In this document: positions 2,172-31,517 of the stretch, piece after piece
Layout: each line of letters begins with the position of its first letter
Position numbering within the stretch: the stretch's first letter is position 1
NCBI GenBank assembly: GCA_965211995.1
Contig: OZ243040.1
Coordinates: forward strand, 1,031,620-1,095,619
Direction of reading: 5' to 3'
DNA: 64,000 nucleotides
Origin: Candidatus Oxydemutatoraceae bacterium
GTDB lineage: Bacteria > Pseudomonadota > Gammaproteobacteria > Poriferisulfidales > Oxydemutatoraceae
The notes under the pieces: model-generated
The model's input: the letters and a program-made list of their open reading frames with translations, nothing else
Database searches by the model: none
What the model was told of the DNA's origin: nothing
Program-made: the position numbers and the translations under genes

Positions 2172-2997
2172 TCATCCGGCCTCGCCATTGGACCCGGGCC
2201 GTTGCGCTTCACTTTGCGCGCCTGCGAGTGCTCCGGATACCGCATCCCCCACAGACGCCGCTCGCGGCAACTCCCCGGCGGGGACGGGTACGCGTCCCCC
2301 GGACCTTGACCCAATTTCAAAACCCTGGTGCGGTCGCTGCTCGTTGTATTCCCGGCGAAATTCATTAAACGCCCGCGGTTGTGCGCTGCGGTTGCCCGCA
2401 GGCGGACTCGCCGCCGCTTCCTCGAACGTGCGGTGCATATTTTGGAACTGTAGAATTAGTTGAACCAGCCATGAGGTCATAAAGGATGCCGACAACAGTT
2501 TTGGGTGCCGCGCAGGCTTACATTGAACGTTTCGGGTCGCTCGAGGTTAGTTTTATTACGCTTGGCGATGACAACGATTTTGGGAAACGTTTAATTCGCG
2601 TAAGCAAATGCGGCAGTGGAGTCAGGCAAGCGCATGAACGAAGCAGCCTTTGAACGGGACTTTCTGGCAACATTGCCCGCCGGCACTCTGCTGTAATGAT
2701 TAAGCGCATACACGTTAACCAGAACGTGATACGGGCAGCCGCTTCCTCAAGCGTGCGGTGCATACGCTCGCAACACCCGTTCTCCTGCGCACGCCCCCGC
2801 GCTGTTCGCGCCGGCATCACCTCCCGCTTCAGCCCCGCACCGTCTGCGGACTCAATCCCCCCCAAAGACACCGCCGCAAACGGCCGGCCGTTGTCCGTGC
2901 GTACCGTCTCCGGCAGACCGTATTCCTCAAACCCCCGCACCGACACCCGCCGCACCGCCTGTGCCTCAGGCACGTTGCAACACCGGCAGGCCGGCAA
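2172..2997 (-). pseudogene. IS481/IS3-superfamily transposase remnant (integrase rve core fragments)
   Basis: ORF 2518..2997(-) has GLPETVRTDNGRPFAA...ENGCCERMHRTLEEAAA, which is the integrase core. ORF 2172..2495(-) has MHRTFEEAA...FNEFRREYNEQRPHQ, which is the rve C-terminus. The two fragments share a duplicated roughly 22-nt segment (cttcctcgaacgtgcggtgcat / cttcctcaagcgtgcggtgcat) at 2420-2445 and 2745-2768, and there is no intact N-terminal HTH. I call it degraded. Confidence 0.55.
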
Positions 2998-3157
2998 GCA
3001 ACGGCCGGGGTTGGCGCTGAGCGTCGGCGGCTGACAATGCCGCGCGCCGCCCGTCTTGAAAAGTTGTCCTTAATCCGCGGGGGTTCGTGTAACCCGCACA
3101 TTCATCTTGACAATATAAAAACGATATAATCGCGGTTTCACCCGTCACTTTCCTGAA

Positions 3158-4426
3158 ATGCCGCGAAAACCGAATATCTTCTACGCCCAATCCGGCGGCG
3201 TCACCGCCGTTATCAATGCCACCGCCGCCGGCGTGATCGAAACCGCGCGCCGCCACCAGGACCAGGTCGGCAAAGTCATCGCCGGACTCAACGGCATCAC
3301 CGGCGCGCTCAACGAGGAACTCGTGGACACCGGCAGGGAAAGCGAGCGGGCGATTGCGGCGCTGCGCCACACGCCCGCGGGCGCTTACGGCTCGTGCCGC
3401 TACCGCTTGCAGGACCTCAAGCAAAACCGCGCGGAATACCTGCGCCTGATCGAAGTGTTCAAGGCCCACAACATCGGCTACTTTCTGTACAACGGCGGCG
3501 GCGACTCGCAGGATACGACCCATAAAGTGTCGCTGATCGGCAAGGCGCTCGACCACCCGATCACATGCATCGGCATCCCCAAAACGGTGGACAACGATCT
3601 CGCGCACACCGACAACTGCCCGGGCTTCGGGTCGGTCGCCAAATACGTCGCGGTGTCGGTGCGCGAAGCGAGTTTCGACGTCGCCTCGATGTGCGAAACC
3701 TCGACCAAGGTGTTCATCCTCGAAGTCATGGGCCGGCACGCGGGCTGGATCGCGGCGGCCGGCGGACTCGCAAGCGAGCGCGAGGGGGAAGCGCCGCACA
3801 TCATCCTGTTCCCGGAAATCCCCTTCGGCAAGCGCGAGTTTCTCGCGCGTGTCAAACGCTGCGTCAAACGCTGCGGCTACTGCGTGATCGTCGTCTCCGA
3901 GGGCCTGCGCAACAAACGCGGGCAATTGCTCGCCGACGCCGGCACCCGCGATGCGTTCGGTCACAAGCAACTTGGCGGCGCCGCGCTGACGCTCGCCGAG
4001 ATGGTCAAGCAGGCGCTGGGCTTCAAGTATCACTGGGCGGTCGCGGACTACCTGCAACGCTCGGCACGCCACGTCGCGTCGGCGGTGGACGTCGATCAGG
4101 CTTACGTGCTGGGCTGCGCCGCGGTCGAGTTCGCGTTAGCCGGCCGCCGCTCGGTGATGGCGACGATCGTGCGCAAGTCAAACCGGCCCTACCGCTGGAC
4201 GGTCGGCGCGATTGATCTCAAGCAAGTCGCGAACCGCGAAAAGAAAATGCCGAGAAACTACATTACCAAAGACGGCTTCCATATCACGCAACGCTGCCGC
4301 ACCTACCTGGAACCGCTGATACAAGGAGAAGCCTACCCCCCGTTCAAACGCGGCCTGCCGGATTACGTCAACTTGAAAAACGTCAGGCTCGCGAAAAAAT
4401 TGCGCGCGTGGAAGCCCTCCGGATAA
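3158..4426 (+). CDS. pfp: 6-phosphofructokinase, 420-aa group typical of PPi-dependent PFK of methanotrophs
   Basis: IFYAQSGGVTAVINA, NGGGDS and IGIPKTVDNDL are PFK motifs. The roughly 420-aa length with a C-terminal extension is as in Pfp. The PPi dependence is an inference. Confidence 0.8.
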   Translation: MPRKPNIFYAQSGGVTAVINATAAGVIETARRHQDQVGKVIAGLNGITGALNEELVDTGRESERAIAALRHTPAGAYGSCRYRLQDLKQNRAEYLRLIEVFKAHNIGYFLYNGGGDSQDTTHKVSLIGKALDHPITCIGIPKTVDNDLAHTDNCPGFGSVAKYVAVSVREASFDVASMCETSTKVFILEVMGRHAGWIAAAGGLASEREGEAPHIILFPEIPFGKREFLARVKRCVKRCGYCVIVVSEGLRNKRGQLLADAGTRDAFGHKQLGGAALTLAEMVKQALGFKYHWAVADYLQRSARHVASAVDVDQAYVLGCAAVEFALAGRRSVMATIVRKSNRPYRWTVGAIDLKQVANREKKMPRNYITKDGFHITQRCRTYLEPLIQGEAYPPFKRGLPDYVNLKNVRLAKKLRAWKPSG

Positions 4427-4454
4427 ACCCGGAGACCGACGCGGACCGGAACCC

Positions 4455-5267
4455 ATGCGGGCACATTCGCTCAAGCCGGAAGAGTATCTGTTTGAACGCG
4501 AGCCGTTTTACCGTGCGACCGGCGACGAGGTCGGGGTGTTCATGCGCGCTTATGACAACCGCCTGCCGGTGCTGCTCAAGGGCCCGACCGGCTGCGGCAA
4601 AACGCGCTTCATGGAATATATGTCGTGGCGGTTGCAACAGCCGCTGATCACAATCTCGTGCCACGACGACCTGACCGCGTCCGACCTGATCGGGCGCTAT
4701 CTGCTGAAAGGCGGGGACACCGTGTGGATGGACGGGCCGTTGACGCGCGCGGTACGCAAGGGGTGCCTCTGCTATCTCGATGAGATCGTCGAAGCGCGCA
4801 AGGACACCACCGTCGTAATCCACCCGCTGTGCGACGACCGCCGCGTCCTGCCGGTGGAAAAGCACGGCGAATTGATCAGGGCCGAAGACGGCTTCTGCAT
4901 GGCGATCTCATACAACCCGGGTTATCAGAGCGTGCTGAAAGATCTGAAGCAAAGCACGCGGCAGCGCTTTGTCGCGTTGACTTTCGACTATCCCGCGGCG
5001 GCGGCTGAAAGCGAGATCGTGCGCACCGAGACCGGCCTCGACGAAACCACCGCCGGGCGCCTGGTCAAGTTCGCGGGACTGACGCGCAACCTCAAAGGCA
5101 ACGGCCTGGACGAAGGCGCAAGCACGCGCCTGCTGGTGCACGCGGCAAAACTCATCGTCTCCGGCATCGCCCCCGTCGCCGCGGTGCGCTGCTGCATCTC
5201 AGAGTCACTGAGCGACGACCCGGAGATCCTCCGCTCGGTCGAAGAACTGAGCACCTCGGTGTTCTGA
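4455..5267 (+). CDS. CbbQ/NirQ/NorQ/GvpN-family MoxR-like AAA+ ATPase
   Basis: EPFYRATGDEVGVFMRAYDNRLPVLLKGPTGCGKTRFMEYM, 270 aa, which is the canonical CbbQ size. No CbbO/NorD von Willebrand-A partner is visible. Confidence 0.8.
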   Translation: MRAHSLKPEEYLFEREPFYRATGDEVGVFMRAYDNRLPVLLKGPTGCGKTRFMEYMSWRLQQPLITISCHDDLTASDLIGRYLLKGGDTVWMDGPLTRAVRKGCLCYLDEIVEARKDTTVVIHPLCDDRRVLPVEKHGELIRAEDGFCMAISYNPGYQSVLKDLKQSTRQRFVALTFDYPAAAAESEIVRTETGLDETTAGRLVKFAGLTRNLKGNGLDEGASTRLLVHAAKLIVSGIAPVAAVRCCISESLSDDPEILRSVEELSTSVF

Positions 5268-5397
5268 ACGCGCCCCGCGGGGAACGCGCGCGAACAACCG
5301 CGGCACACGGGATAAAAAATTTGCTTGTTTTAACCGGCGCCGTGAACAAGGTGCCGCGGCGGATCGCCCGGACTGCCGCCGCAGCGGCGCCGCGTCT

Positions 5398-6375
5398 TTA
5401 GTGTCTGGGTCTTTGAATATCCTTGACTTTCCGATACTTTAAATAAGCCAGCGTGCGCTCCAGAGATTTCCAAAGATCTCTTTCCCACCTTTTCTTAAGT
5501 TTCTTTTTTTCCTTGAGCGGAATGTAATTTATAAAATGCAATAACCTGCTCATGTTCCGTTGTTCCAAAAGCCACATCATCAGACGATTAAAAAACCCCT
5601 GATTCGACGCGTAGATATTGTCTTCGATCCGGGTAGGCCACGGCTGGTAAACACAGGAAAAATACTTGAAATCGGACGGCGCATAAGGAAACCTTTGCCT
5701 ATCCGGATGGAAATGCGTGCTGTACCGGTAAGTTTCCCTGAACTCCTCTTTTTTTGAATACTCGGGGCTGCAAAAATCGTCCACGTGCTTGGTCACCAGC
5801 GATAAACACGGATTGGCGACCCGGATCGAGGCTTCCACGGCTTTTTGAATCATATAACTGTCGCAGCCCAGCGTCCCGATCAAAACGTCGTCTTTGAACC
5901 TTTTGATCGGCGCGCAAAAAATATAATTGTCATAAGAGCCCAACACGCCGTTTTCCGTCAATTCCCACTCACCGGAGGCGAAGCGTTCGTAGCGGCAGAG
6001 CGCCCATAGATGATCGGGCTTGAGTTCCCGCACCCTCCCGACCGGCGTCTCCGGATCAAAGTAAACGTCGGCATTGCTGGCGATCACGTAATCCCCCGCC
6101 AGATGCTCGTTGGCGTAGTCAAAAAATACAGTGTACTTGGGGCGCTCCCGTATAAAGATCACCTCCACTTTTTCATGCGTCAAGCCGGAATATTTGGAGG
6201 CGGCCTCTTCGCTCCCCTGAAAAAACACGATGATCCTGTCTATCTCGGTGTTGCAGTTGTTCTCCAGGCACCGCTCAAACTCGGCTTTTCTGGCCTGCTG
6301 AAACTTGCTCGCAAGCAGCGGCTGCCGCGCGGGAATACTTGTGAGCATTACAATGTCTTTCATTTCAAAAACCAC
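5398..6375 (-). CDS. Hypothetical protein in a low-GC block (possibly glycosyltransferase-like); function unknown
   Basis: A 325-aa ORF whose AT-rich codon usage contrasts with its neighbours. I recognise no diagnostic motif. Confidence 0.45.
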   Translation of the reverse strand: MVFEMKDIVMLTSIPARQPLLASKFQQARKAEFERCLENNCNTEIDRIIVFFQGSEEAASKYSGLTHEKVEVIFIRERPKYTVFFDYANEHLAGDYVIASNADVYFDPETPVGRVRELKPDHLWALCRYERFASGEWELTENGVLGSYDNYIFCAPIKRFKDDVLIGTLGCDSYMIQKAVEASIRVANPCLSLVTKHVDDFCSPEYSKKEEFRETYRYSTHFHPDRQRFPYAPSDFKYFSCVYQPWPTRIEDNIYASNQGFFNRLMMWLLEQRNMSRLLHFINYIPLKEKKKLKKRWERDLWKSLERTLAYLKYRKVKDIQRPRH

Positions 6376-6619
6376 GCTCCGCTTTCCGGAAAAGCGGCCT
6401 CACCCGGCGCAACGGCTCACGGGTTTCCCCATCTGACTTGCGGATGTTTTTATCCCGGTTCATGTAAATCAACCTGCGATGCGCCGCTGTGGATTGCCGC
6501 TGCGCTCTTGCCGGCGGCGCCCGGCGCAATCGGCGGTAAAGCCGCCTGAGCCACCCTCCGCTCAGATAGCGGCCAAAACCTATTGCGGACGAATAAGCGT
6601 TGTCCTCAATACGTGAAAG

Positions 6620-7291
6620 TTACTTGTAAATGATCTCGACGCGGCGATTTTTAGCGTGGGCTTCCTCGCCGCCGCCCTCAACCGCCGGCCTTTCCTCGCC
6701 GTAACTGATCACCGACATCTGCAGCGCCTGCACCCCGTTGGCGCGCAGAAAGTTTTTCACCGCCAACGCGCGCCTCTCGCCGAGCGCCAGATTGTAGCCG
6801 GCGGAACCCCGCCTGTCGGCGTGGCCTTCGAGCGAAATTTCGACGTCCGGCTTCTCTGACAGATAATCGGCGTGCTGCATCAGCACTTCGCGGCTTGCGG
6901 GCTTGAGTTCCACCCGGTTGAAATCGAAATACACGATGATGTACCGCAGCAGCGGATTCTCGGCAATCGCGTCGCGATACGACTGGCGTTGCTCCAACTC
7001 GCCGCTGTCGCCGTACAACTCCCTGACCGTTCCCGCGACCTGTTCGGGGTAAGCCGCCGTCTCAGTCAGCTCAGTCGGCTCAGCCATCGCGTCCTCGTCC
7101 GCACTCTCCTTCACGCTCGCGGTTTCCTGCACGGGCTTGCGTTCGAGCGTTTTGGTCGCAGTGCAGCCGGCCACGGCGATGCACAACGCGATGACGAATG
7201 CGCAAAGAGAAAAGTTCACCGGGACGGGGGCCAACGGCGCACTTTCCCGGCGTGCTTGAGGGCGGGTTTCATTCTTAACCGGATTGTTCAT
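6620..7291 (-). CDS. OmpA-family lipoprotein (Pal-like peptidoglycan-associated protein)
   Basis: Lipobox LCIAVAGC, and an OmpA C-terminal domain NRVELKP...EGHADRRGSAGYNLALGERRALAV...RRVEI. Confidence 0.75.
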   Translation of the reverse strand: MNNPVKNETRPQARRESAPLAPVPVNFSLCAFVIALCIAVAGCTATKTLERKPVQETASVKESADEDAMAEPTELTETAAYPEQVAGTVRELYGDSGELEQRQSYRDAIAENPLLRYIIVYFDFNRVELKPASREVLMQHADYLSEKPDVEISLEGHADRRGSAGYNLALGERRALAVKNFLRANGVQALQMSVISYGEERPAVEGGGEEAHAKNRRVEIIYK

Positions 7292-7671
7292 TGCGTTCCC
7301 CATGGAAACAAAAATTCACGTTGCGGGTTCACGCTCCGACTCGCGATGAACGCCGAAACAGCGCGGATTATAGCAAACCCGGCGCCCGTCGGCGCACCCC
7401 GCAGCGTCCCCCCCGCAAGTTTCCACACCGGCTTTATCAGGCGTGCGCGCTTCTTCCATCTTGCCCGTGCGTGTGCGCCAAGGCAATAAAATGCAGGGTG
7501 CCGCGGGCGCCGACAACCGTGCACACGGTTATGCCGGCTGCGGTGCCGGAACAATTGGAAGGACAGGCGCGGCGGATGAGACCTGCGCCGGAGGAGCAGG
7601 CCGACCGGCGATTCTGAAACCGGGCGGTTCCCCGTAAGCGCGGCCGCGGTTGCACGCGGCTTACCCCCTCT

Positions 7672-7950
7672 TCATTCAGCAACCCTTGAGTTATTTTCAA
7701 AACTGATTCTCCAAATCCCGCAGGCCACGCTTGCCAATTTCCGTTGCCGTTGCTCGATCGTTGCGGGGGTCCATTCTGCATATCTCCCCGCGCAGTTCTT
7801 TGTTATTTGAAAACGGCTGACGGCATAAACGGGGCGCTTTTTTTCATAAGGATCGTTAGCCGCCTGTTGATTCCTTACTTCATAGAGGATGCTGTTGCCC
7901 AGCAGGGAACGCAGCGTTTTCGTTTCGGGGTTGACAATCGGCTGAGACAT
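7672..7950 (-). CDS. Small hypothetical protein (92 aa) at the edge of the low-GC island
   Basis: An ORF only, with no recognisable motif. Confidence 0.3.
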   Translation of the reverse strand: MSQPIVNPETKTLRSLLGNSILYEVRNQQAANDPYEKKRPVYAVSRFQITKNCAGRYAEWTPATIEQRQRKLASVACGIWRISFENNSRVAE

Positions 7951-8246
7951 CTTGTCTCTGTAGATTACAGAAAGGTTAACTTTGAGCCGATGATCTGCTC
8001 TTGTCTATTATAAACATTCGGACGGATTTGAAGCCCGGCGCCGTATCCAATGCACACAACACTACAGCGCGGAAAGCCGAAAAATTGCTGATTTTCCGGT
8101 GGCTGAGAATCTGGCAGAAACACACTAAAGAGAGCACAATCCCTGCCTCTTTAACCCGGAAAAACGACAGATTGCGGTTAGGATAATGATGCCGAAAAAC
8201 CCGATAACTTGAAAGCAGTTGAGATAATGTAGGCGGAGGCAAAACG

Positions 8247-9668
8247 ATGGCGGCAAAAAACAACATGAAAATTTCCGTTGAGAACTATGGCCCTATTGCA
8301 AAGGCGGAGAACATTGAACTTTGCCCGTTGACGGTGTTTGTCGGCCCTGGCAACACGGGGAAATCGTATCTTGCGATTCTGATTTACGCGTTGTTTAAGT
8401 CTTTTGAAGCAAAGCGCTTGATCTTATCGGGTTTCAGAAAGACCGGCGGGGAAAACAGCCAAAAATTAATTTTCGATGCCGAATCCATAACCGGAAATGT
8501 AGTTGATTTTCTAACAGAAATATTAGAAGAAAAGACTGAAGATATTAAATTATCAGATTTTCCTGAAGAACTGCAACAGTGGGTTAACGATGGAATTGCA
8601 CAAGCAGCGGAGCAAAATTTTCAGCGGGAGATTTCCCGTTGTATGGGGATGTCTCAAAAAGAAGGGCGTTCGATAAACACAAGATTGAAACTCAACTTGG
8701 AGGACGACCAAAAAAGACTGATGCTGGCCCCTTCCCCCACGCCCCCGAAGATGGAGATTAAAAATCCAGGCCCTGTAGGAAATATAATGGATAGATTGAT
8801 TGGATTTATGCACTTACAAAAAGATTTGGCACAAGAAATAGCAAAAAGAATGTTTCTCTATTTTATATCAGAGAAGATCCTGCGCCCCCACGGCGAGGTC
8901 AAGTCTTTCTACTTGCCTGCCGCAAGAGCAGGGATTATACAAAGCCAACGCGCTATCACGGGGGCTTTGGTGCAACGGGCCACTTTTGCGGAAACGGAAA
9001 CCTTTTCCGTGCCCCCCCTGAGCGGTATTGCGTCTGACTTCCTGCAGGAAATTATCGCTATGGATACAAGTGAAATTCCTTGCCCCGAAGTGGAAAAGAT
9101 AGCGCAGGAAATGGAAAGGGACATACTGCATGGCTCCATTAAGTCGAAAAGCCCGGAAAGGAATCAATACCCGCAATTTTCATACCAACAGAATGGGGTT
9201 GAAATTCCACTGCTGCGTGCCTCGTCCATGGTCTCGGAACTTGCCCCTGTTGTGCTGCTCATCAGACACCGGGTCGGAAAAGGCGATTTACTTATTATTG
9301 AAGAGCCTGAAGCGCATTTACACCCTGAAGCCCAGAGAAACATTGCAAAAGCGGTTGTCCATCTGGTTCGAGCGGGCGTTCGGGTCATGGTGACAACCCA
9401 CAGCGATTATTTTTTAGATCAACTTGTAAATCATGTCCGCGTTTCAAAATTGAAGAAAAATGAAGAGGGCGATCAACCGCTTCCTTTGCTGAAAGAAGAT
9501 CAAATTGGCGTCTATGTATTTAACAAGTGCACCCAGGGCACCCAGGGCACCATTACTAAAAGGTTGGATTTCGACAAAGAAAACGGATTTTCTCCCGAAG
9601 ATCATGACGAGGTGTCTTCCGGGTTGTATAACCAAACCGTCGAAATTCTGGAACAACTTGATCAATAG
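8247..9668 (+). CDS. ABC-type (AAA_21 / OLD-PtuA-AriA-GajA-like) ATPase; putative phage-defence ATPase with no nuclease partner
   Basis: N-terminal Walker A FVGPGNTGKSYLAILIYAL. C-terminal Walker B and H-loop LLIIEEPEAHLHPEAQRNIAKAVV...VMVTTHSDYFLDQL. 473 aa, in a low-GC context. The RBS is ggaggc 8 nt upstream of the start. Confidence 0.7.
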   Translation: MAAKNNMKISVENYGPIAKAENIELCPLTVFVGPGNTGKSYLAILIYALFKSFEAKRLILSGFRKTGGENSQKLIFDAESITGNVVDFLTEILEEKTEDIKLSDFPEELQQWVNDGIAQAAEQNFQREISRCMGMSQKEGRSINTRLKLNLEDDQKRLMLAPSPTPPKMEIKNPGPVGNIMDRLIGFMHLQKDLAQEIAKRMFLYFISEKILRPHGEVKSFYLPAARAGIIQSQRAITGALVQRATFAETETFSVPPLSGIASDFLQEIIAMDTSEIPCPEVEKIAQEMERDILHGSIKSKSPERNQYPQFSYQQNGVEIPLLRASSMVSELAPVVLLIRHRVGKGDLLIIEEPEAHLHPEAQRNIAKAVVHLVRAGVRVMVTTHSDYFLDQLVNHVRVSKLKKNEEGDQPLPLLKEDQIGVYVFNKCTQGTQGTITKRLDFDKENGFSPEDHDEVSSGLYNQTVEILEQLDQ

Positions 9669-9737
9669 GTGAGCAAGGCGGGGTGAATTTTTCATGCCGC
9701 GTCACAACGGGCAATTTATTTGCCGTCCGAACCTGAC

Positions 9738-10058
9738 TCATGCCCGGGCTTTTGCCCGGCTTGCTTTATGCTTTCCCGGGCGAAAGACTTGGACGTTGCT
9801 CAGAATCTTTTTCTTCCGCCGCTTCGCGCGGGCCATGGAATAGGCGTTTTGAAGACGCATCATGAATTCCGCTTCAGGCCCAAACGCTTTTTCAATCCGG
9901 AAAGCCATTTCAGCAGATAAATCCGCCCGCTCATTCACAAGAGCGGACAGTGCCTGGCGGCTTACGCCAAGCACCGCCGCCGCATTAGTGACGTTGACCT
10001 CCAAAGGCTTGAGTACTTCCTCTAGGAAGATCTAACCCGGATGCACCGGGTTCGCCAT
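9738..10058 (-). pseudogene. HigA-like (XRE-HTH) antitoxin interrupted by an in-frame TAG; no HigB toxin gene present
   Basis: ATG at 10058 encodes MANPVHPG, followed by an in-frame TAG at 10034-10032 where the family has Glu. The frame then continues ...FLEEVLKPLEVNVTNAAAVLGVSRQALSALVNERADLSAEMAFRIEKAFG...LQNAY, which is the plasmid-maintenance antidote HigA/VapI fold. The track ORF starts at a TTG at 10004. Confidence 0.55.
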
Positions 10059-10128
10059 GGGCATTTTTGTTCTCCTTTTATGGGGTTGGAACTTGATTTT
10101 GAACCGGGGGGAAATCAGTTAAACAGAA

Positions 10129-10419
10129 CTAGGAAGTAAAAAGCCTGAACAGCAAGGCGATCATCACCATGCCGACAGTGGCAAGCAACGGTATTAACCA
10201 CTTAAGAGTTTTCATCTCAGCATCCAATCGTCCGAAGTCTTCTTTAGTGGCTAATCCTTCTATTTTAGTTTCTACTCTAGTAAGCCTTTGAAGGATTTCT
10301 TTATCGCCTCCATTGCCACCATCATTATTACGGGATTGCCCCGTATTTATTCCAACAACATTATTGTTTTGTCGATTATCCATTAGACCAATGGCCTTTA
10401 TTTCTTTTGCCAATCCCAC
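10129..10419 (-). CDS. XhlA-like small membrane protein (phage-associated haemolysin/holin-like; coiled coil plus C-terminal TM)
   Basis: ILQRLTRVETKIEGLATKEDFGRLDAEMKTLKWLIPLLATVGMVMIALLF. Low GC. Confidence 0.45.
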   Translation of the reverse strand: MGLAKEIKAIGLMDNRQNNNVVGINTGQSRNNDGGNGGDKEILQRLTRVETKIEGLATKEDFGRLDAEMKTLKWLIPLLATVGMVMIALLFRLFTS

Positions 10420-10652
10420 AGGCTTACGTTATACCACCCGTTCAGGCTTTCTGCTTCTACTACAATTCCAGTACGTTTTTTTTCTTCATTAAAACCTGCA
10501 ACATCCATGACTTCATTGAGGGCACTATCAGTTTTAACAAAAAGCAAATTATCTTCTATTTGAAAACATTGCTCTTTTCCAAATTTTTTGGCTAGATCAT
10601 TCCGTAGAGAACCATTGGAACTGTCTCTTTCATATATTAGATAAACAGACAT
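10398..10652 (-). CDS. Hypothetical small protein (84 aa), low GC
   Basis: An ORF only; it overlaps the upstream gene by 22 nt. Confidence 0.3.
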   Translation of the reverse strand: MSVYLIYERDSSNGSLRNDLAKKFGKEQCFQIEDNLLFVKTDSALNEVMDVAGFNEEKKRTGIVVEAESLNGWYNVSLWDWQKK

Positions 10653-11295
10653 TTGTTAAGTACCGCTCATTAGTTGATGAAACGCTTTTTGTTAATCGTC
10701 TATTGGTTTAAGGGTTTGCGCCTTTCCTTTCAATTATTCAATTGCAGCAATAAAAAAATTCCTTTATTTTGCAATAGGCGCCATCAAAAGCAATGCAACG
10801 CACGCCCACTTGCTTGTTAATAAGCACGTAAATCTGCAGGGCGTGAGGCGCAGGCCATTGTATATAATTTCCCCAAACCAAGGCAATTGCCGTTGGTGGC
10901 GCAAGTCCGGCGCTGCCTCCTTTGCCATACATTTGGCAACAATGACGGCAGACTGTACCGCCTGACTTGATGAGACCCCTTGCGCGGCGCGGTGGCGCAG
11001 CACGAATACCTGCATTGCGTGGCCTGTTGACTCGGCGGAATGAATCGCGTTACGGGGGATATTACTTAACTTATTGATTTTTAATTAAAGTTAAGACATC
11101 TGCGGGAGGAATTTGCGGTCAACTCAACTCCTTCATTGTTGCGGAAATACAACGGCTTGTGGTGAAAACCCTTTACTTGTGGGTATTTAGTTTATATACT
11201 TTAGGGATACGTGCGCCGAGGGGAAGTGATTCCCTGATTTTCCAACAGGCGTGAAAGGTTAACTAACTTTTCAGAATAATTCTGAAAAAAAGAGG

Positions 11296-12726
11296 ATGAC
11301 AATGAAAAAGAAAATTGCGTCAATCCTTGTGTGCCTAAGCGCCACAATGTTTGGAGTCTCAACCGCGTACGGAGACGCTTTTGAGGGACTGTCCATGATG
11401 CGCATGGGCGCCTGGGAGGTGGACTTCAGCGGTAACGTCAACGCATTCTTCACCAATGGCGAGTGCGATTCCAGTGGGAATGGTGAAACCGTTTATCATG
11501 GTCTGGCCTGCGGGTCTGACGGCAACGATAGAGATTACGGCGACGTCAGAGACGGTCTGTTGCCGTCGTGGCTGAATTTCTCGGCGGCGACGACGACCGA
11601 CAACGGCATCCGCACCGCTATCCATTTGAGTTTTCAGCCGGGCACCGATACTGACAGCGGCTTCACCGAGCCTCTGGACGGTGCGCTCGGTCTAAGCAGC
11701 GTCAACTTCCGCCAGACATTTCTGACGTTCGGCAACGACGAGTTGGGCACGTTCAAGATCGGTCGGGATCTCGGGGTTTTCGGCTCCGACGCAATCCTGA
11801 ACGACATGACGCTCCTCGGCGTCGGCTCGGGTGCTCAAGGCAGCGGACATACCACGCTTGGTCGGATCGGCATCGGCTATCTGTACGCCGACTGGAAAGC
11901 CCAGGTGCAGTACCAGACGCCGAACTTCAACGGCTTTACGGTCACTGCTGCGATCGTTGATCCTTGGGGCGTAAGCACGTGGAACGGTTATGGCCCCCCA
12001 GCACCAGCAGGCGCCGCATACAGTGCCGATGACAATGACGCCGGAGGGCAGGAACAAGACACCTACGGGTTTGAAGCCAAAGTCAACTACAATACTGAGT
12101 TTGACGGCGGTTCCCTCGGTCTGTGGGTCGGCTACATCACTCAAAGCATAGACTTTGAAAACAACCTGCAAAGCGGTTGCGTTGATGGTAACGGTGCCTT
12201 TGATAGGCTAGAAACCTCGGACAACGATGCTAACCCTGATAATGTCATACCTGCCTGTACCGTTGCTAATAACAACTTTGCAGGTGACGACAGCGCAGAT
12301 GCCGATGGCTATGACATCGGTGCGAAAATCGTGTTCGGCAACTTTGACGTCGTAGCCTATTACTACGACGGCGAAGGCATCGGCACGACTTCGTTCCTGC
12401 TCGATGCTCTCGACCCGACCGGCGAGGAGCGCGATTCCGATGGCTACTACCTGCAAGCACGCTATCGTCTGCCAATCGGCACTTTGCTCGGCGTGAGCGT
12501 CGGCGAGAGCAATCTCGAAGAAACGCCTTTGGATCAAGCGCGGCTTAGTGCTGACGCTTCCTACAACCTCGTTGAAACCAGCGAGTCGTGGATTGTCGGC
12601 GCGTATCACCCGATTGGCGAGGCGTTGAACCTGGTGGTCGAATACACCAACACCGAAGCCGAGGCGCACAACGGCAACGAAGCCGAGGAAGACAGCATCG
12701 CGATCGGCGCGATCATGTTCTTTTAA
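11296..12726 (+). CDS. Outer-membrane porin (Gram-negative beta-barrel)
   Basis: Signal peptide MKKKIASILVCLSATMFGVSTAYG, alternating amphipathic beta strands rich in G/T/N/D, and a C-terminal aromatic ...AIGAIMFF. Confidence 0.75.
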   Translation: MTMKKKIASILVCLSATMFGVSTAYGDAFEGLSMMRMGAWEVDFSGNVNAFFTNGECDSSGNGETVYHGLACGSDGNDRDYGDVRDGLLPSWLNFSAATTTDNGIRTAIHLSFQPGTDTDSGFTEPLDGALGLSSVNFRQTFLTFGNDELGTFKIGRDLGVFGSDAILNDMTLLGVGSGAQGSGHTTLGRIGIGYLYADWKAQVQYQTPNFNGFTVTAAIVDPWGVSTWNGYGPPAPAGAAYSADDNDAGGQEQDTYGFEAKVNYNTEFDGGSLGLWVGYITQSIDFENNLQSGCVDGNGAFDRLETSDNDANPDNVIPACTVANNNFAGDDSADADGYDIGAKIVFGNFDVVAYYYDGEGIGTTSFLLDALDPTGEERDSDGYYLQARYRLPIGTLLGVSVGESNLEETPLDQARLSADASYNLVETSESWIVGAYHPIGEALNLVVEYTNTEAEAHNGNEAEEDSIAIGAIMFF

Positions 12727-12750
12727 TACTCTCCGGAGTATCGCTTAGAA

Positions 12751-12790
12751 CGGCGAAAGGAGCGTGGCAACCCCACGCTCCTTTTTTTTG
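12751..12790 (+). terminator. Rho-independent terminator after the porin gene
   Basis: aggagcgtggcaaccccacgctcc is a GC-rich hairpin, followed by a run of 8 T. Confidence 0.75.
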
Positions 12791-12993
12791 AATTGATCCA
12801 AAGGGACTAACCGGCAAAACCGGGGGCAATCTTCGGGGTTGTCGTTTATCCGGCGCCGGCCCTTGCGCCCGACGCTCAGCGCAAACTTCCGCTCCGAGTC
12901 TCCTTTGCCGGTTTCGGCGAACGCCCATGCTCCTTATCAATTAAGCACCGCGCAATAGCCTGTATAATCACCGCGCACACCGGCAATACCCCT

Positions 12994-13800
12994 ATGCGAC
13001 TTTTACACTTCGCCGCCTTCCGCGCACTTTGCCTCGCGTTCGCCTTTGCCACCGCGGCGGGTGCAACGGAAACTTTGTGGGAAAGCCGCGGTGAATACGT
13101 CAAGATCGCGCCGCGCGACGGCGGCACCGCCAACCAACACCCCCTCAAGATAGACCGGCAACTGCTCGCGCAGGCTTTCTCGAAACTCAGGGTCGAACCG
13201 GGTAAAAAGCAGTCGAAAGAACTGCTCGAAAGCGGCGAGGAACCCGAAATAGCACGGCTGTTCACGCCCGCGACCGCGCACCGCATCGCGAACTACGTCG
13301 CCGACGGCCTGCGCGACGCCGGCCCCGACGACGACGTCGTGTTCCGCAGCGTGGATACCGCACCGCTGCTGGGCAAACTCCTCGGCAAGCAAGTGTTCGT
13401 CACCGGGCGCGTGTTCTGGCGCAACCGCCACCTGCACGTCATCTTCGGCAAAATCCATAAGAACATAAAGAAACGCTGGCTGCTCGGCAAGGAACAAGGC
13501 TACCTGAACGCACCCGAACCGGGCGCACGCGGCAAAGCCGCCGCGCTGAAACTGCGCATCGTCGAAGGCGCCGGCATCAGCAACGCCAAGACCCGCGATG
13601 GCAAAAAGCGCCTGGATTGGGTGATGATCGAACCGCGCGCACTCGCCCGCTCCGAACCGGCAAGCAGGCGCCCCGCACCGCCGGCACGCGACCGCTCGAC
13701 CAAAGCGCGCCTGAAACGCCTGGAGCGCCTGCGCAAGGAAGGCGTGATCACCGGGAAAGAATACAAAACCAAGCGGAAAGAGATCCTCGACGAACTCTAA
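12994..13800 (+). CDS. Secreted hypothetical protein with a C-terminal SHOCT domain
   Basis: Signal peptide MRLLHFAAFRALCLAFAFATAAGA. The C-terminus LKRLERLRKEGVITGKEYKTKRKEILDEL is a SHOCT motif. Confidence 0.55.
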   Translation: MRLLHFAAFRALCLAFAFATAAGATETLWESRGEYVKIAPRDGGTANQHPLKIDRQLLAQAFSKLRVEPGKKQSKELLESGEEPEIARLFTPATAHRIANYVADGLRDAGPDDDVVFRSVDTAPLLGKLLGKQVFVTGRVFWRNRHLHVIFGKIHKNIKKRWLLGKEQGYLNAPEPGARGKAAALKLRIVEGAGISNAKTRDGKKRLDWVMIEPRALARSEPASRRPAPPARDRSTKARLKRLERLRKEGVITGKEYKTKRKEILDEL

Positions 13801-14266
13801 AGCGTGTCACGCTTGAGCGCCTTCCGAGTTGCGCCGATGCCTTTCCGAATTATTTTCTTAGGTGTCAATAGATTACGACTGCCATAGAAAAAATGTTGAA
13901 ATAGCGGAATCCCCACTTCAAGGATCACAATGAAACCCTTTTCAAGAGGAATGCTCTCTTTATGGCATCCCAGAGAATTGTCGCTGATCACCGATCCCGA
14001 GGAGATGCAAAGGGAGGTTTGGCAAGCGGTAGGAGACGCCCTGCGGTTCGCCATGAACACTTATGAGGCAACGGAAGAATATCAAGCCGCGGTTGACGCC
14101 GCCGGCCAAAGTCGTTCAGCCACGCCCAGTACTTCCACAAGGAAAGCGCAAGTCGTCGTACAAGAAGAACGTAGCGGCCCCCTGCCCGCGCCGGTAGATC
14201 CCCAGCCAAATACAATGCCAAATACAATGTGAAGTAGTCCCCGGTGCCGGGAATCGCATTATCAGC

Positions 14267-14494
14267 ATGGCCGAAAAACAGGCCGAACACCTGCAAAATA
14301 TACAAAATAAAATAACAACCGGCTATTTTAAGGAGACCGGACGCGGGCAGATTATGGCGTTTATTCTCGGGATACTCGGTATTTTGTGCGCTGCTTATCT
14401 TGGAATAAAAGGTCATGGATTTGTCGGGGTCGGATTAGGCATCATCGGCGTTTCATCAATGATGTCTCAATTTATCGTAAAACGAAAGAAATAA
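14267..14494 (+). CDS. Small two-TM membrane protein (75 aa), low GC
   Basis: FILGILGILCAAYLGIKGHGFVGVGLGIIGVSSMMSQFIV. Confidence 0.35.
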   Translation: MAEKQAEHLQNIQNKITTGYFKETGRGQIMAFILGILGILCAAYLGIKGHGFVGVGLGIIGVSSMMSQFIVKRKK

Positions 14495-14689
14495 AACGTT
14501 GAACCGGGAGCTTCTCACCAAAGAATGATGGTTTGAGATGAAACCAGTTTTGAGTTTCCGTGCGGTTATCGTTCCCCGGCGAAGAAGGCTTTCGCTTTGC
14601 TTAGGATTGCGCACTCGATCTTCAAGCGCTCATGTTCCTTGCGTGCCGGCTTTCCTCCTGAATGGAATTGGCCTTACCCCGTTTTAACG

Positions 14690-15311
14690 GACACCGGTTT
14701 AGACTGAGGCCTCCTGCTGTTCATACACGGTGGGCGGCGTGTAATTGACTCCGCATCGGTGTCGGGAAAGTTCGGCGCGCGCACCTGCTGTTCATACACG
14801 GTGGCGGCGTGTAATTGACGGCGGAATGCCGGCGCCGCTGATTATAAAAGACCTCGATCTACTCGAACACCGAAGTCCTTGCCTGCTCGCGGGTTGCATA
14901 GCGTTCAGAGTGCACCAGCTCCCGCTTCAGGGTGGCGAAGAAACTCTCCATCACCGCATTGTCGTGGCAGTTGCCGCGGCGCGACATCGAACAGGTGATG
15001 CCGTTGGACTCAAGCAGCCACCGATAGTCGTGCGAGGCATACTGACTGCCGCGGTCGGAGTGCAGCAGCAGTCCCTCGACTTTGCCGCGCCGCCACAGCG
15101 CCATCCTCAAGGCTTCGCCCGCCAGTTGCCGCGTCATGCGCTTCGCCATCGCCCGGCCCACCACCGCCCGTGAATACAACTCGAGCACCACGGCCAGTGA
15201 CTTTCCCCCGCTTCGACGGACACCGGCTGAGACTGAATCCCCCCGGCGCCGGGTCGGCGGTGCCGGACTTCCGCTACATCCGCCGCAAGCGGAACAACCC
15301 TTCCAGAACAC
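14690..15311 (-). mobile_element. IS3-family insertion-sequence remnant (OrfB integrase-core fragment with an in-frame TAG; duplicated end sequences)
   Basis: ORF 14859..15311 carries LLHSDRGSQYAS...GITCSMSRRGNCHDNAVMESFFATLKRELVHSERYATREQARTSVFE, then a TAG where the family has Tyr, then IEVFYNQRRRHSA. The N-terminal half is absent. The end-like sequence acggacaccggtttagactga(g/a) recurs at 14690 and 15222, and cctgctgttcatacacggtgg(g)cggcgtgtaattgac recurs twice at 14719-14757 and 14782-14819. Confidence 0.6.
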
Positions 15312-27536: not shown

Positions 27537-29231
27537 ATGCCGGATAAACCAAGCCAGCCGAGCGACATCGAAATCGCCGCGCAAGCGAAAATGCGCCGCA
27601 TCTCGGACGTCGCCGCAGAAAAACTCGGGATCGACGCCGGCGTCCTCGAACTCTTCGGCCACCACAAAGCCAAAATCCCTCTCGACTTCATCGCCTCGCT
27701 GAACGAGCGCCCGACGGGCAAGCTGATCCTGGTCACCGCGACGCACCCGACGCCGCGCGGCGAAGGCAAAACCACGACCACGATCGGCCTCGGCGACGCA
27801 CTCAATCGCATCGGCAAAAAAACGATTATGTGCATCCGCGAGCCGTCGCTGGGCCCGTGCTTCGGGATCAAGGGCGGCGCGGCCGGCGGCGGGTACGCGC
27901 AAGTCGTGCCGATGGAGGACATCAACCTGCACTTCACCGGCGATCTGCACGCGGTTTCCCTCACGCACAACCTGCTCGCGGCCCTGATCGACAATCATAT
28001 CCACCACGGCAACGCGCTCGGGCTCGACCCGCGGCGCACCAGTTGGAAACGGGTGGTTGACCTCAACGACCGCTCGCTGAGAAAAATCGTCGTCGGCCTC
28101 GGCGGCACCGTCAACGGCTACCTGCGCGAAGACGGCTTCGACATCGTCACCGCCTCCGAAGTGATGGCGATCCTGTGCCTGTCGTCGTCGCTTGCGGAGC
28201 TCAAGCGCCGCCTCGGCAGCATCGTCATCGGCTACAACTACGCGGGCGAGATGGTGCGCGCCGCCGACCTCAAGGCGCACGGCTCGATGGCCGCGCTGCT
28301 CAAGGACACGCTCAAGCCCAACCTCGTGCAGACGCTGGAGAACAACCCAACGCTGGTGCACGGCGGCCCGTTTGCGAACATCGCCCACGGCTGCAACTCG
28401 ATCATCGCGACCAAGTGCGCGCTCAAACTCGCCGACTACGTGATCACCGAAGCGGGCTTTGGCGCCGACCTCGGCGCCGAGAAGTTCTTTGATATCAAGT
28501 GCCGCAAGGCCGGCCTCGCACCCTCGCTCGCCGTCATCGTCACCACGGTGCGCGCGTTGCAGTACCACGGACATCACCACCCGCGACGCCGGGAAGCCGA
28601 CACGCTCAAAACGCTCGAAAAAGGCATCGCCAACCTCGAACGCCACATAGACAACATCCGCAACTGCTTCCAACTGCCGTGCCTGGTCGCGATCAACCGC
28701 TTCAGCGAAGACCGCGACGAGGAATTGGCCTTGATCATCGAAAAAGCGGCGGCGCACGGCGCCGAAGCGGTGATCGCCGACCACTGGGCCGGCGGCGGCG
28801 CCGGCGCCGAAGATCTCGCCCGCGCGGTGGTTGACGCGACCGCCGGCGAACCGCCGCCGCTGCAATTCGCCTACGATGAAAGAGACACCCTGTGGCAGAA
28901 AATCGAAAAAATCGCCAAGAAGATCTACGGTGCCGGCGAAGTGATCGCGGACATGAAAATACGCAACCGCATCCACTACTATCAGGAAAACGGCTACGGC
29001 CACTTCCCCGTCTGCATCGCCAAAACCCAGTACTCTTTCTCTACCGACCCGCAACTGCGGGGCGCGCCGTCCCGGCACATCGTGCGCCTCAACGACATCT
29101 CGCTGTCGGCGGGCGCCGAATTCTTCGTCGTCGGCTGCGGGCATATCCAAACCATGCCCGGTTTGCCCAGGGAGCCGGCGGCCAACTTCATAGACGTTGA
29201 CAAAGACGGCAAGATCAGCGGGCTGTTCTGA
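27537..29231 (+). CDS. fhs: Formate--tetrahydrofolate ligase
   Basis: [41 protein letters not shown], about 564 aa. Start chosen at [17 protein letters not shown]; the track ORF starts 14 codons earlier. Confidence 0.9.
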
Positions 29232-29459
29232 ACCCGGCGGCGGGGTTCAAGCCGGGGCTCAGGGCAACCCGCCCGGGTTGCGGGGTAAACCCGTCCCTGT
29301 GCGCCGCCGCCTGAGCCGCGATTTGCGCCAAACGACACCGGGCGGGCTTATGACCCGACCCGCCAAACGCCCCGCACTACTTGGAATGCCTTAGCCGGCG
29401 GGGGTTAAAAGAAACGTGCTCGTTAATAAAGAGGACAAGAAAATTCTCTACTTCCTTTT

Positions 29460-30518
29460 CTATCTTTCGGTAAGCATCCGTATAGAAAATCTTGCTCCTT
29501 TGCGGCATAACGATTTATTGCCAAATAAAGATGTCTGAGTTTCTGAGTGGCCGCTGTTTTTACCGTTGCCGGATTGTTCATTGAGGGTATTTCGATCCCA
29601 AAAAACGCCGTCGGAATAACCTTGTATCGCTTTGTTTAATTCCGCCATTTCCAGCCGTTTTTCGGCAAGGCAGCTATAGAGTTCATCTATTTCAATGCCC
29701 ACGTAATTTCTTCCCAGCTTTTTTGCAACAACGGAGGTAGTCCCAGAGCCGAGAAAGGGATCAAAGACGACATGACCGGGTTTTGAACTTGCGAGAAGAA
29801 TTTTTGCAATCAACTTCTCCGGTTTCTGAGTCGGATGATCCGTGTTTTCCGGCATCGACCAAAAAGGAATCGTGATATCGGTCCAAATGTTTGATGGGTG
29901 CGTCAGGCGGTATTTTCCGTTTTCCTCCTCGCTCCAATCTTTGGCTTTTCCAGAATCATCGCGATAAGGAGCGATGACCTTTCTTTTCATTTTTACCGCC
30001 GCAACGTTAAAATAATAATCTTTTGACATCGTGCAAAACCACATATCCTCAGAGTTGTTTTTCCAGTTTGTTTTTGCGCCGCGCCCTTTCTCTCTTTCAA
30101 ACGTTATGCGGTTTTGAATTTCAAAATGCTTCCCGGCAACATTGAAAATCCCCCCGGACGATTTCCAATCCCCGCAAATGTAAACAGAGGCCGTCGGCTT
30201 CAACAGGCGCACCATTTTGCTTATCCATGAATCCAGCCAGTTCTCGTATTTTTCCGATTCCATTTCCTTAAACACGGCAAGATTGAAAGTTTTATTGAGA
30301 TTATATGGAGGATCGACAAAGGCAATATCCACAAACTTATCAGGCAAATAGTCCAACACTTCAAAAGTATCCTGCTGTATTGTTTTATTCAAGACCTCAC
30401 CGACGGAAGCCGGCCCGTCAATTTTGACAAGCCGTTTCTTGTATTTAGCCCAGTCGTTATCGCTTAAATCAATGGTGCGATTGCGCGGGGCTTTTTCTTT
30501 TGGCTTTTCACTATTCAC
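29460..30518 (-). CDS. Orphan beta-class DNA methyltransferase (N6-adenine or N4-cytosine), low GC
   Basis: Motif IV DPPY (FVDPPYN) precedes motif I FDPFLGSGTT, which is the beta-class order. AT-rich codon usage. No adjacent restriction endonuclease ORF. Confidence 0.8.
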   Translation of the reverse strand: MNSEKPKEKAPRNRTIDLSDNDWAKYKKRLVKIDGPASVGEVLNKTIQQDTFEVLDYLPDKFVDIAFVDPPYNLNKTFNLAVFKEMESEKYENWLDSWISKMVRLLKPTASVYICGDWKSSGGIFNVAGKHFEIQNRITFEREKGRGAKTNWKNNSEDMWFCTMSKDYYFNVAAVKMKRKVIAPYRDDSGKAKDWSEEENGKYRLTHPSNIWTDITIPFWSMPENTDHPTQKPEKLIAKILLASSKPGHVVFDPFLGSGTTSVVAKKLGRNYVGIEIDELYSCLAEKRLEMAELNKAIQGYSDGVFWDRNTLNEQSGNGKNSGHSETQTSLFGNKSLCRKGARFSIRMLTER

Positions 30519-30546
30519 GCTTGCTTTGCTCAGTCCACCAAACGGT

Positions 30547-30634
30547 TGGCGGAGAGGGAGGGATTCGAACCCCCGGACCGTCGCCGGTCAACGGTTTTCA
30601 AGACCGCCGCTTTAGACCACTCAGCCACCTCTCC
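30547..30634 (-). tRNA. tRNA-Ser: tRNA-Ser (anticodon UGA), class II with long variable arm
   Basis: RC is GGAGAGGTGGCTGAGTGGTCTAAAGCGGCGGTCTTGAAAACCGTTGACCGGCGACGGTCCGGGGGTTCGAATCCCTCCCTCTCCGCCA. It has a 7-bp acceptor stem, a 3-bp D stem, anticodon loop CT-TGA-AA, a 16-nt variable arm, a TPsiC loop TTCGAAT and an encoded CCA. Confidence 0.85.
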
Positions 30635-30848
30635 CGGACGGAATCCACGCATATTACACAAAACCGGCGGCGGCGGCGGCGATCCCGGCGCTCAGCCGCG
30701 GCAAACACTACCCGGCGCTCGCACAAGGCGGCAGCGGCAATCCCGGCGCCCACCCCCCGTGAATCCCTTGTTTTTTTGAACGCCGCCCCCATCTTTGATA
30801 GACTAACGGATGGTTTTCAACGCCCCGATATAAACCTGCAATAAAGAG

Positions 30849-31517
30849 GTGAAAAACATGGAATACGCTTCAACTCAATCGCGCGCCGGCGTACTCGCGA
30901 CCAACAAGGTCATACGCAACACCTATCTGTTGCTGACCATGACCTTGCTGACGTCCGCGATCACCGCGGCCATCGCGATGGCCAGCCGCGCAAGTTTCGT
31001 GAACCCGATCCTGATGCTGGTGGTGTTCATCGGCATGCCGTTCGTGATCTATCGCCTCAGAAACAGCGCCTGGGCATTGCCCGTCACTTTCCTGTTCACC
31101 GGCTTCATGGGCTACGTACTCGGCCCGATCCTCAATGTGTATCTTGGGTTGCCGAACGGGCCGCAGGTCGTGATGGCGGCATTCGCGACCACCGCCGTCA
31201 TGTTCTTCGGCCTGTCGGGCTACGCGCTGATGACGCGCCGCGACTTCAGTTTCATGGGCGGCTTTCTCTTCACCGGCTTGCTCGTGCTGATCGGCGCAGT
31301 CATCCTCAACCTGTTCATGTCCATCCCGGCGCTGTCGCTGACGATTTCGGCGGCGGCCGTGATCCTGATGACCGGCATGATCCTGTATGACACCAGCCGC
31401 ATGGTGCACGGCGGCGAAACCAACTACATCGTGATGACGGTTTCGATGTTCGCCAGCATCTACGTGCTGTTTATACATTTGTTGAACCTGTTCTCGTTCT
31501 TCGGCGGCAACGATTAA
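30849..31517 (+). CDS. Bax inhibitor-1/YccA-family membrane protein
   Basis: Seven predicted TM segments, and YDTSRMVHGGETNYIVMTVSMFASIYVLFIHLLNLF is the family C-terminal motif. Confidence 0.75.
   Translation: MKNMEYASTQSRAGVLATNKVIRNTYLLLTMTLLTSAITAAIAMASRASFVNPILMLVVFIGMPFVIYRLRNSAWALPVTFLFTGFMGYVLGPILNVYLGLPNGPQVVMAAFATTAVMFFGLSGYALMTRRDFSFMGGFLFTGLLVLIGAVILNLFMSIPALSLTISAAAVILMTGMILYDTSRMVHGGETNYIVMTVSMFASIYVLFIHLLNLFSFFGGND

Follow-up and report, generated by a model that had tools for sequence, protein, structure and literature searches.

A low-GC island in a Candidatus Oxydemutatoraceae genome carries the likely surviving ATPase of a decayed ATPase–nuclease defence module

Introduction

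We describe a low-GC island in a 64-kb stretch of DNA (contig OZ243040.1, from Candidatus Oxydemutatoraceae bacterium; the whole of its 64,000 nucleotides is termed the window) and especially an ABC-type ATPase gene on board the island, which an earlier reading of the letters by themselves (the first-pass annotation) had taken for a lone defence-like ATPase. Three features are needed from the outset, one of them recognisable through L001, a related contig.

7650..11290, no strand: low-GC island, with 45.6% GC against 62.3% in the rest of the window; L001 has the same island.
8247..9668, (+): gene for an ABC-type ATPase (AAA_15/AAA_21), an intact open reading frame (ORF) of 473 aa with GGAGG 8 nt upstream; the putative sensor subunit of a module, now orphaned.
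9669..9729, (+): relic of a deleted nuclease gene, comprising the first 6 nt (GTGAGC) of the corresponding L001 ORF and 55 nt more (9675..9729).

In a composition scan of the whole window, 7650..11290 is the stretch of 3.6 kb with the lowest GC content of all, the next-lowest non-overlapping one having 55%. The first-pass annotation was right that the block differs sharply from its flanks, and GC is not uniform.

Systems that pair an ATPase with a small nuclease provide the background for this locus. PD-T4-4, which comes from Vassallo et al. 2022 (PMC9519451), combines a PD-(D/E)xK nuclease and a P-loop NTPase (bioRxiv 10.1101/2025.07.10.664194). WonAB, from the WASA-1 prophage of V. cholerae, combines an OLD-type ABC ATPase and a small PD-(D/E)xK nuclease; both genes are needed, wonA alone giving no phenotype, and activation shuts down translation, leading to aborted infection (PMC12137116). 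PDC-M47 is a candidate two-gene system of PADLOC, and no mention of it was found in the literature searched. Two plasmid loci served as references, a PD-T4-4 locus from E. coli pSCU-105-5 (L164; A protein 410 bits, B protein 147 bits) and a PDC-M47 locus from Annamia dubia pANN4383.03 (L165; A 767 bits, B 205 bits); in both, the ATPase comes first and the small protein follows.

The ATPase

The ORFs lie where the first-pass annotation placed them, and the 473-aa protein has the motifs that it listed: Walker A (GPGNTGKS), Walker B (LLIIEEPEAHLHP, containing IIEEPE) and an H-loop (TTHS), the complement of an ABC-type ATPase of the ~450–480 aa class. Pfam matches are to AAA_15 (7.9e-26) and, as had been proposed, AAA_21 (8.9e-15). 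Among PADLOC profiles PD-T4-4_A is the best match (5.3e-39, 133 bits), followed by PDC-M47A (9.2e-31, 105 bits) and AriA (2.2e-28); the AriA, Old and GajA profiles match the C-terminal half of the protein. True members score 234–767 bits on the PD-T4-4_A and PDC-M47A profiles, against 105–133 bits for the window ATPase. The predicted structure has a mean predicted local distance difference test score (pLDDT) of 77, and the nearest solved structures in Foldseek are PtuA (from Septu and retron systems), which is nearest of all at E 6e-11 to 4e-10, and Rad50/SMC heads. With these structures and profiles, the earlier assignment to an ABC/OLD-type class is broadly correct. Plasmid and phage collections hold distant relatives of the ATPase only, at 34% identity or less.

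Searches with Pfam and PADLOC profiles found no DUF3696, TOPRIM, HNH or DUF4435 domain in the ATPase or in the neighbouring ORFs; the C-terminal DUF3696-type domain for which the first-pass annotation proposed to look gave no match at E<=0.1. That annotation had also remarked that no HNH, TOPRIM or DUF4435 partner is nearby. None is, but the wrong kind of partner had been sought, that of this family being a ~157-aa protein with a predicted PD-(D/E)xK fold.

The distant similarity of fold to Rad50/SMC heads could also be read as a sign of a housekeeping protein of the ABC/SMC family. We give this next to no credence, since NCBIfam matches to transporters, FtsE and EttA reach 13–19 bits against cut-offs of 200–800, the GC content is aberrant, and the context of the homologues varies in everything except the nuclease gene, with restriction-modification, methylase and toxin–antitoxin genes among the neighbours. 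The conserved synteny that the first-pass annotation had named as telling for such a family was not seen, and on the sub-cut-off NCBIfam scores and the non-conserved context a housekeeping identity was ruled out.

The deleted partner gene

L001, a contig of 11 kb in ENA, carries the closest homologue of the ATPase (91% amino-acid identity) and is collinear with positions 2341..13491 of the window at 96–97% DNA identity. The two share the gene order PFK, CbbQ, glycosyltransferase-like gene, OmpA, island and porin-like gene. The comparison of island content with a related strain, suggested in the first-pass annotation, proved informative: L001 has the same island with the nuclease gene intact and with other lesions.

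At the base right after the stop codon of the L001 ATPase begins an ORF of 163 aa (L001 7225..7716), and ORFs of ~155 aa clearly similar to this partner likewise follow the ATPases of L002 (60% identical) and L003 (57%). This small downstream nuclease gene is absent from the window, apart from the relic. In a base-level alignment the first junction, window 9674|9675, corresponds to L001 7230|7517, with 286 bp gone from the window; the second, window 9729|9730, corresponds to L001 7572|7784, with 211 bp gone. Between the two stand the 55 nt of 9675..9729, identical at 47 positions to L001 7517..7572, which lies in the middle of the L001 gene and holds the codons for GGVSFFIKHHDGPFICRP. Because an internal relic stands between two deletions, the difference is a loss in the window lineage.

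Two sequences alone cannot polarise an indel, and nothing more specific than this speaks for the converse, namely that the window preserves the ancestral state and that L001 acquired its nuclease gene by insertion. The window, however, keeps a match to the middle of the nuclease gene between two separate gaps, and outgroup loci (34–60% ATPase identity) nearly all have the gene at the same position. Relic and outgroups together in effect refute an insertion in L001, which we regard as extremely improbable.

L001 has damage of its own. It lacks window positions 10303..10634, a deletion of 332 bp (at L001 8359|8360) which joins the first six codons of a small gene, ORF84, to the second half of an adjacent membrane-protein gene (both described below) and creates an 81-aa chimera. 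The nuclease gene and a neighbouring higA gene are intact in L001, the latter bearing a nonsense codon (TAG) in the window. Each sister strain has its own lesions in the shared island.

Both sequences come from metagenome assemblies, and the contig name of L001 suggests ~4x coverage; the deletions and the TAG might then be spurious, products of sequencing or of assembly in a metagenome-assembled genome (MAG). A single-base TAG could by itself be an error, but three independent differences of 211–332 bp, with clean junctions in collinear DNA that is 96–97% identical, are atypical of read errors, and we think an artefact very unlikely.

No second copy of the partner was found in the 64-kb window by tblastn with 57 partner proteins, and the L001 partner matches 9688..9747 only. 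With its nuclease gene deleted, the module cannot work as encoded in the window.

The partner family

Relatives of the ATPase were gathered by scanning one genome per species with an alignment of 41 ATPases, which returned 79 loci and brought the total to 82. A hidden Markov model (HMM) of the partner, built from the three partner ORFs of L001, L002 and L003 and then iterated, identifies a partner gene in 74 of the 82 loci, and for 73 of those the gene shares the strand of the ATPase and begins no more than tens of nt from its stop. Partner copies are frameshifted at four of the 74. The eight loci with no partner match include one in which the contig ends at the ATPase, two with disrupted ATPases, one with a degraded partner relic, and a further two with divergent ORFs that contain a D...ExK-like motif. 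Given this count and the state of the frameshifted and partner-less loci, loss or decay of the partner is recurrent, yet the two-gene state is the rule in the family.

At two loci where the usual partner is absent, neighbouring ORFs read IADVVLH...IAECK (L014, 5436..6125, minus strand) and CDLVAIV...IEAKSG (L071, 5473..6090, plus strand); they may encode alternative or very divergent nuclease partners. Two partner-type nuclease ORFs lie less than 2 kb apart in L027 (5406–5984 and 7232–7753) and in L034 (4908–5477 and 7053–7640). Several genomes have two separate copies of the module, the pairs listed being L030/L064, L024/L062 and L075/L081.

The median length of the partner is 167 aa among extracted ORFs and ~157 aa among called proteins. 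The family has no match in Pfam, in PHROG or among PDB sequences (best PDB-sequence profile E 0.3). In its alignment an Asp (D65 in L001 numbering) and a Glu (E82) are invariant, and nearly so are a Lys (K84), a Gln (Q96) and three or four Cys; the motif is RCD(Y/F)hh ... P(h)E(L/F)K.G ... QL..G. An AlphaFold2 model of one member (pLDDT 92; predicted TM-score, pTM, 0.90) places the Asp where one central strand begins and the ExK where the next one ends, ahead of a long helix, and the fold matches of the model are limited to nucleases of the restriction-endonuclease fold (PD-(D/E)xK). The fold is read from the model because the profile comparison with PDB sequences is not significant; the model shows a restriction-endonuclease-like fold bearing the D...(D/E)xK motif, and the partner is thereby predicted to be a small PD-(D/E)xK-fold nuclease.

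Intact ATPase–nuclease modules (L004–L082) occur in MAGs of Poribacteria (>20 loci), Dehalococcoidia, Caldilineaceae, Nitrospirales, Gammaproteobacteria, Paracoccaceae, Latescibacterota and Spirochaetia, and also in the archaea Cenarchaeum, Nitrosopumilaceae, Thermofilales and Haloquadratum. Poribacteria, Caldilineaceae, Dehalococcoidia and Cenarchaeum, among many of these host lineages, are typical sponge symbionts. Since the branch spans so many phyla and so many hosts of this kind, its distribution suggests extensive horizontal exchange within the sponge-symbiont community.

Condition of the window ATPase

Between window and L001 the ATPases show 43 non-synonymous and 19 synonymous differences, and the ratio of the corresponding substitution rates (dN/dS), based on these 62 differences, is 0.62; for other genes compared between the same two sequences it is 0.06 (PFK), 0 (CbbQ) and 0.26 (porin-like gene). 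The window ATPase departs from columns that are at least 97% conserved in 39 other members at S35G (in the P-loop segment), M231I and F338L. It also contains a perfect 9-nt tandem duplication, ACCCAGGGC twice over at 9531..9548, which is in frame, adds Thr-Gln-Gly to the protein and is found neither in L001 nor in other family members. Such divergence is compatible with relaxed constraint but is no proof of it. The L001 ATPase is itself changed at R244Q and R375Q, in columns 92–95% conserved, and because the system of L001 is intact, relaxed selection is not assignable to the window lineage alone.

The first-pass annotation had left open whether the system is a novel one of a single gene or a decayed one of two. 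L001, the 74 of 82 loci and the relic support the two-gene reading; the single-gene reading found no support. A few family loci do lack a recognisable partner (L055, L067), and the window ORF is intact, with all its ABC motifs and a Shine–Dalgarno sequence, as a functional single-gene defence or regulatory protein would be, or one that acts with an effector encoded elsewhere. We nevertheless judge a stand-alone role unlikely. The partner is adjacent in nearly the whole family, its relic in the window makes the loss secondary, no further copy lies within 64 kb, dN/dS is 0.62, near-invariant residues have been substituted, and the ATPase of WonAB alone has no phenotype (PMC12137116).

Some of these observations, with others, weigh against regarding the window ATPase as a dead remnant of a known class. 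The substitution ratio derives from 62 differences, and L001, with its system intact, is altered at conserved sites as well. With an undamaged ORF behind a good ribosome-binding site, the ATPase may still be expressed and doing something. The partner search covered 64 kb of a contig at least 1.9 Mb long, and a partner may be encoded elsewhere. The profile scores of the ATPase are those of a distant branch, and the mechanism and the defence role of that branch are attributed by analogy only.

Relation to known defence systems

The module resembles PDC-M47 in having an ABC ATPase (~460 aa in PDC-M47) followed by a small protein, of ~185 aa there, with the same RCD(Y/F)..(E)xK(x)G..Q(L/F) pattern. 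The only PADLOC match of the partner family is a weak one to PDC-M47B (1e-4 to 3e-6), and comparison of the partner profile with the Annamia B protein in hhalign gives 92.9% probability and E 3.6e-7 over the CD...ExK...Q core. It differs in that ATPase identity is ~25% and the ATPase score is 105 bits against 767 for a true member; the partner here is moreover shorter (~157 aa), has conserved cysteines and is deleted in the window.

With PD-T4-4 the module shares the order ATPase then small PD-(D/E)xK nuclease, and PD-T4-4_A gives the best PADLOC match of the ATPase. The window ATPase, however, scores 133 bits where the E. coli member reaches 364–410; no PD-T4-4_B match at E<=1 was obtained with the partner family, and hhalign against the E. 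coli PD-T4-4_B protein is not significant.

WonAB and the ‘OLD-ABC ATPase + novel REase’ operons (PMC12137116) are alike by description, an ABC-ATPase sensor with a C-terminal extension being joined to a small PD-(D/E)xK nuclease, and the catalytic Lys of the nuclease has a similar position (K71 in WonB, K84 in the L001 partner). The WonA residues K34, E300 and H333, however, imply shorter inserts than K39, E353 and H385 of the window ATPase. Phage protection that depends on both genes has been demonstrated for WonAB alone.

Septu PtuAB, OLD, Gabija GajA and PARIS AriA have ABC ATPases of the same broad clade, but their effectors are HNH (PtuB) or TOPRIM proteins, and neither is present here as a domain of the ATPase or as a neighbour. 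For Septu in particular, the NCBIfam PtuA score is 21.3 bits against a cut-off of 500, and there is no HNH neighbour.

Taken from these alignments and profiles, the module appears to be homologous at least to PDC-M47 and to follow the same logic as PD-T4-4 and WonAB; it is a distant branch and a canonical member of neither profile set.

Interpretation

We consider it very probable that the low-GC patch is a defence island which was acquired horizontally and is now decaying, and that the ATPase is the surviving half of a two-gene module of ATPase and nuclease. The module is a divergent branch of the known PD-T4-4/PDC-M47/WonAB class, and the window copy is an inactivated remnant.

In intact modules the nuclease gene of ~157 aa lies directly after the ATPase gene and either adjoins the ATPase stop or overlaps it. 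If such modules work as WonAB and PD-T4-4 do, the ATPase would form dimers joined at composite ATP sites, and its conserved C-terminal extension (residues ~395–473) would keep hold of the small nuclease or activate it. Sensing of infection would then release the nuclease activity, which would halt cell or phage (abortive infection). In the window lineage, the deletions of 286 bp and 211 bp removed the nuclease gene while sparing its internal relic, and the orphan ATPase, to judge from the related systems, would be inert for defence.

The apparent ‘lone defence ATPase’ is on this evidence the leftover of a two-gene system, and the low-GC patch a small group of defunct defence genes. As far as the window is concerned, the finding carries little weight. 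The intact module matters more, as a well-populated unannotated branch that joins a ~470-aa ABC ATPase to a ~157-aa cysteine-rich PD-(D/E)xK protein without a Pfam family, and that current PADLOC models detect weakly. The differing lesions of the sister contigs in one island are also a clean natural example of rapid turnover of defence genes.

Other genes of the island

The remaining features of the island are as follows.

7672..7950, (-): relic of a GmrSD/HEC-06-type (DUF262+DUF1524) type IV restriction enzyme, the last ~70–77 residues of ~570 aa.
9738..10064, (-): higA pseudogene, for a helix-turn-helix antitoxin of the HigA family, with a nonsense TAG at 10032..10034.
10129..10419, (-): gene for a 96-aa ‘XhlA-like’ membrane protein that combines a coiled-coil segment with a hydrophobic helix at the C-terminus.
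10398..10652, (-): ORF84, of a rare family of 80–100 aa; it overlaps the start of the XhlA-like gene.
10653..11295, no strand: AT-rich spacer with 44.8% GC and no recognisable gene, upstream of the porin-like gene 11296..12726.

The ORF at 7672..7950 had been called unknown, and proves to be a third decayed defence gene. It matches the end of Pfam GmrSD_C (8.2e-10; profile positions 78–137 of 138) and of PADLOC HEC-06 (7.7e-18; positions 492–568 of 569), and with a 570-aa DUF262 protein of Pseudanabaena as tblastn query residues 500–568 match the window and nothing more. The likeness to GmrSD, BrxU and HEC-06 is confined to this C-terminal end of DUF1524. Of the full enzyme (~560–600 aa) the window has lost DUF262 and the HNH motif, the latter lying at residues 471–472 of HEC-06, upstream of the surviving segment. 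The relic is identical in L001. It is a dead fragment of a restriction enzyme.

The first-pass annotation correctly reported a HigA-like antitoxin with an in-frame TAG at codon 9 and without HigB. Read from 10064 on the minus strand, the gene encodes M-P-M-A-N-P-V-H-P-G-TAG-I-F-L-E-E, in which the TAG is codon 11 if counting starts at the first ATG and codon 9 if it starts at the second. Downstream of the stop an ORF of 88 aa scores 64.6 bits on NCBIfam TIGR02607, above its curated cut-off of 47.7, as in HigBA systems. L001 has GAG in place of TAG (HPGEIFLEE) and an intact higA of 95 aa (MTMANPVHPGEIFLEE...). Unlike in HigBA, no HigB/RelE-type toxin was found in the neighbouring ORFs of the window or in L001, and the gene upstream encodes the small membrane protein. 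Between higA and the convergent ATPase gene with its relic stands a GC-rich hairpin, CCGGGCTTTTGCCCGG, at 9744..9759, with a T-rich tract after it. The hairpin is also conserved in L001 and probably serves both sides as a terminator.

The label ‘XhlA-like’ did not hold, the XhlA match (PF10779; E 0.054) having 14.1 bits against a cut-off of 34.7. All other Pfam matches of this ORF are likewise below cut-off (DUF2730, 0.0019), and those in PHROG are weak (phrog_6324, a family of unknown function, 2.6e-5; holin phrog_689, 7e-4). The phage origin proposed for the small ORFs draws on such sub-threshold matches only and is not established. Among 5.8 billion proteins the membrane protein has only two homologues.

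ORF84 was rightly listed as a small unknown ORF, with no family match in Pfam, PADLOC, NCBIfam or PHROG. Its family has 21 representatives at E<=1e-3 among 1.84 billion proteins, in which G61, G71 and W78 are invariant and which share the C-terminal motif G...G.V...NGWY..LWDW; they are real proteins. A protein of 6510 aa (P0248) matches the last 30 residues of ORF84 (G.V...NGWY..LWDW) in 14 places, and because of these copies the motif may be a small repeatable domain.

In L166, the one unrelated contig with the membrane protein, an ORF84-like gene precedes the membrane-protein gene and no HigA follows. From this arrangement ORF84 and the membrane protein look like a pair, with HigA probably outside it. 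A conserved module of HigA and membrane protein was considered and is unsupported, the homologues being two only and that of L166 not lying beside HigA. We see only a slight chance that ORF84, the small membrane protein and the HigA-like protein form a membrane-toxin module of a kind not described before, with a HigA-type repressor in control, or else that the orphan ATPase has been retained for a function without its nuclease, as a regulator, a decoy or the partner of an effector elsewhere.

Setting of the island

Neither att-like direct repeats flanking the island nor an enrichment of promoters or terminators rose above chance expectation. No tRNA gene lies beside the island, the sole one in the window being a Ser gene (Ser-TGA) at 30547..30634. 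For an empty-site comparison, an exact-protein look-up of CbbQ returned L001 only, and a metagenome scan with PFK found relatives at 73% identity or less, without the OmpA/porin synteny.

The window has other patches of low GC. One, 29000..31000 (0.51–0.53), surrounds the tRNA gene and may be another acquired segment; another, 5251..6250 (0.48–0.53), spans the 325-aa glycosyltransferase-like gene (5398..6375). To the right of the island, at a distance of 3.5 kb, a truncated transposase gene at 14859..15311 (-) matches the Pfam rve integrase core (3.7e-20) as well as rve_3 and rve_2; it adjoins a third patch, 13750..14750 (GC 0.47–0.52).

The porin-like gene 11296..12726 (+) encodes a protein of 476 aa with a signal peptide and a C-terminal Phe, which has no match in Pfam or NCBIfam. 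It has a counterpart in L001 (9023..10447), and the two are largely conserved except for a stretch of ~45 residues that is wholly different (NNLQSGCVDGNGAFDRLETSDNDANPDNVIPACTVANNNF in the window, GNLQNGCVNGTGAFTALRGYDAAGVATADCAGGDTIGF in L001) and looks like a hypervariable surface loop.

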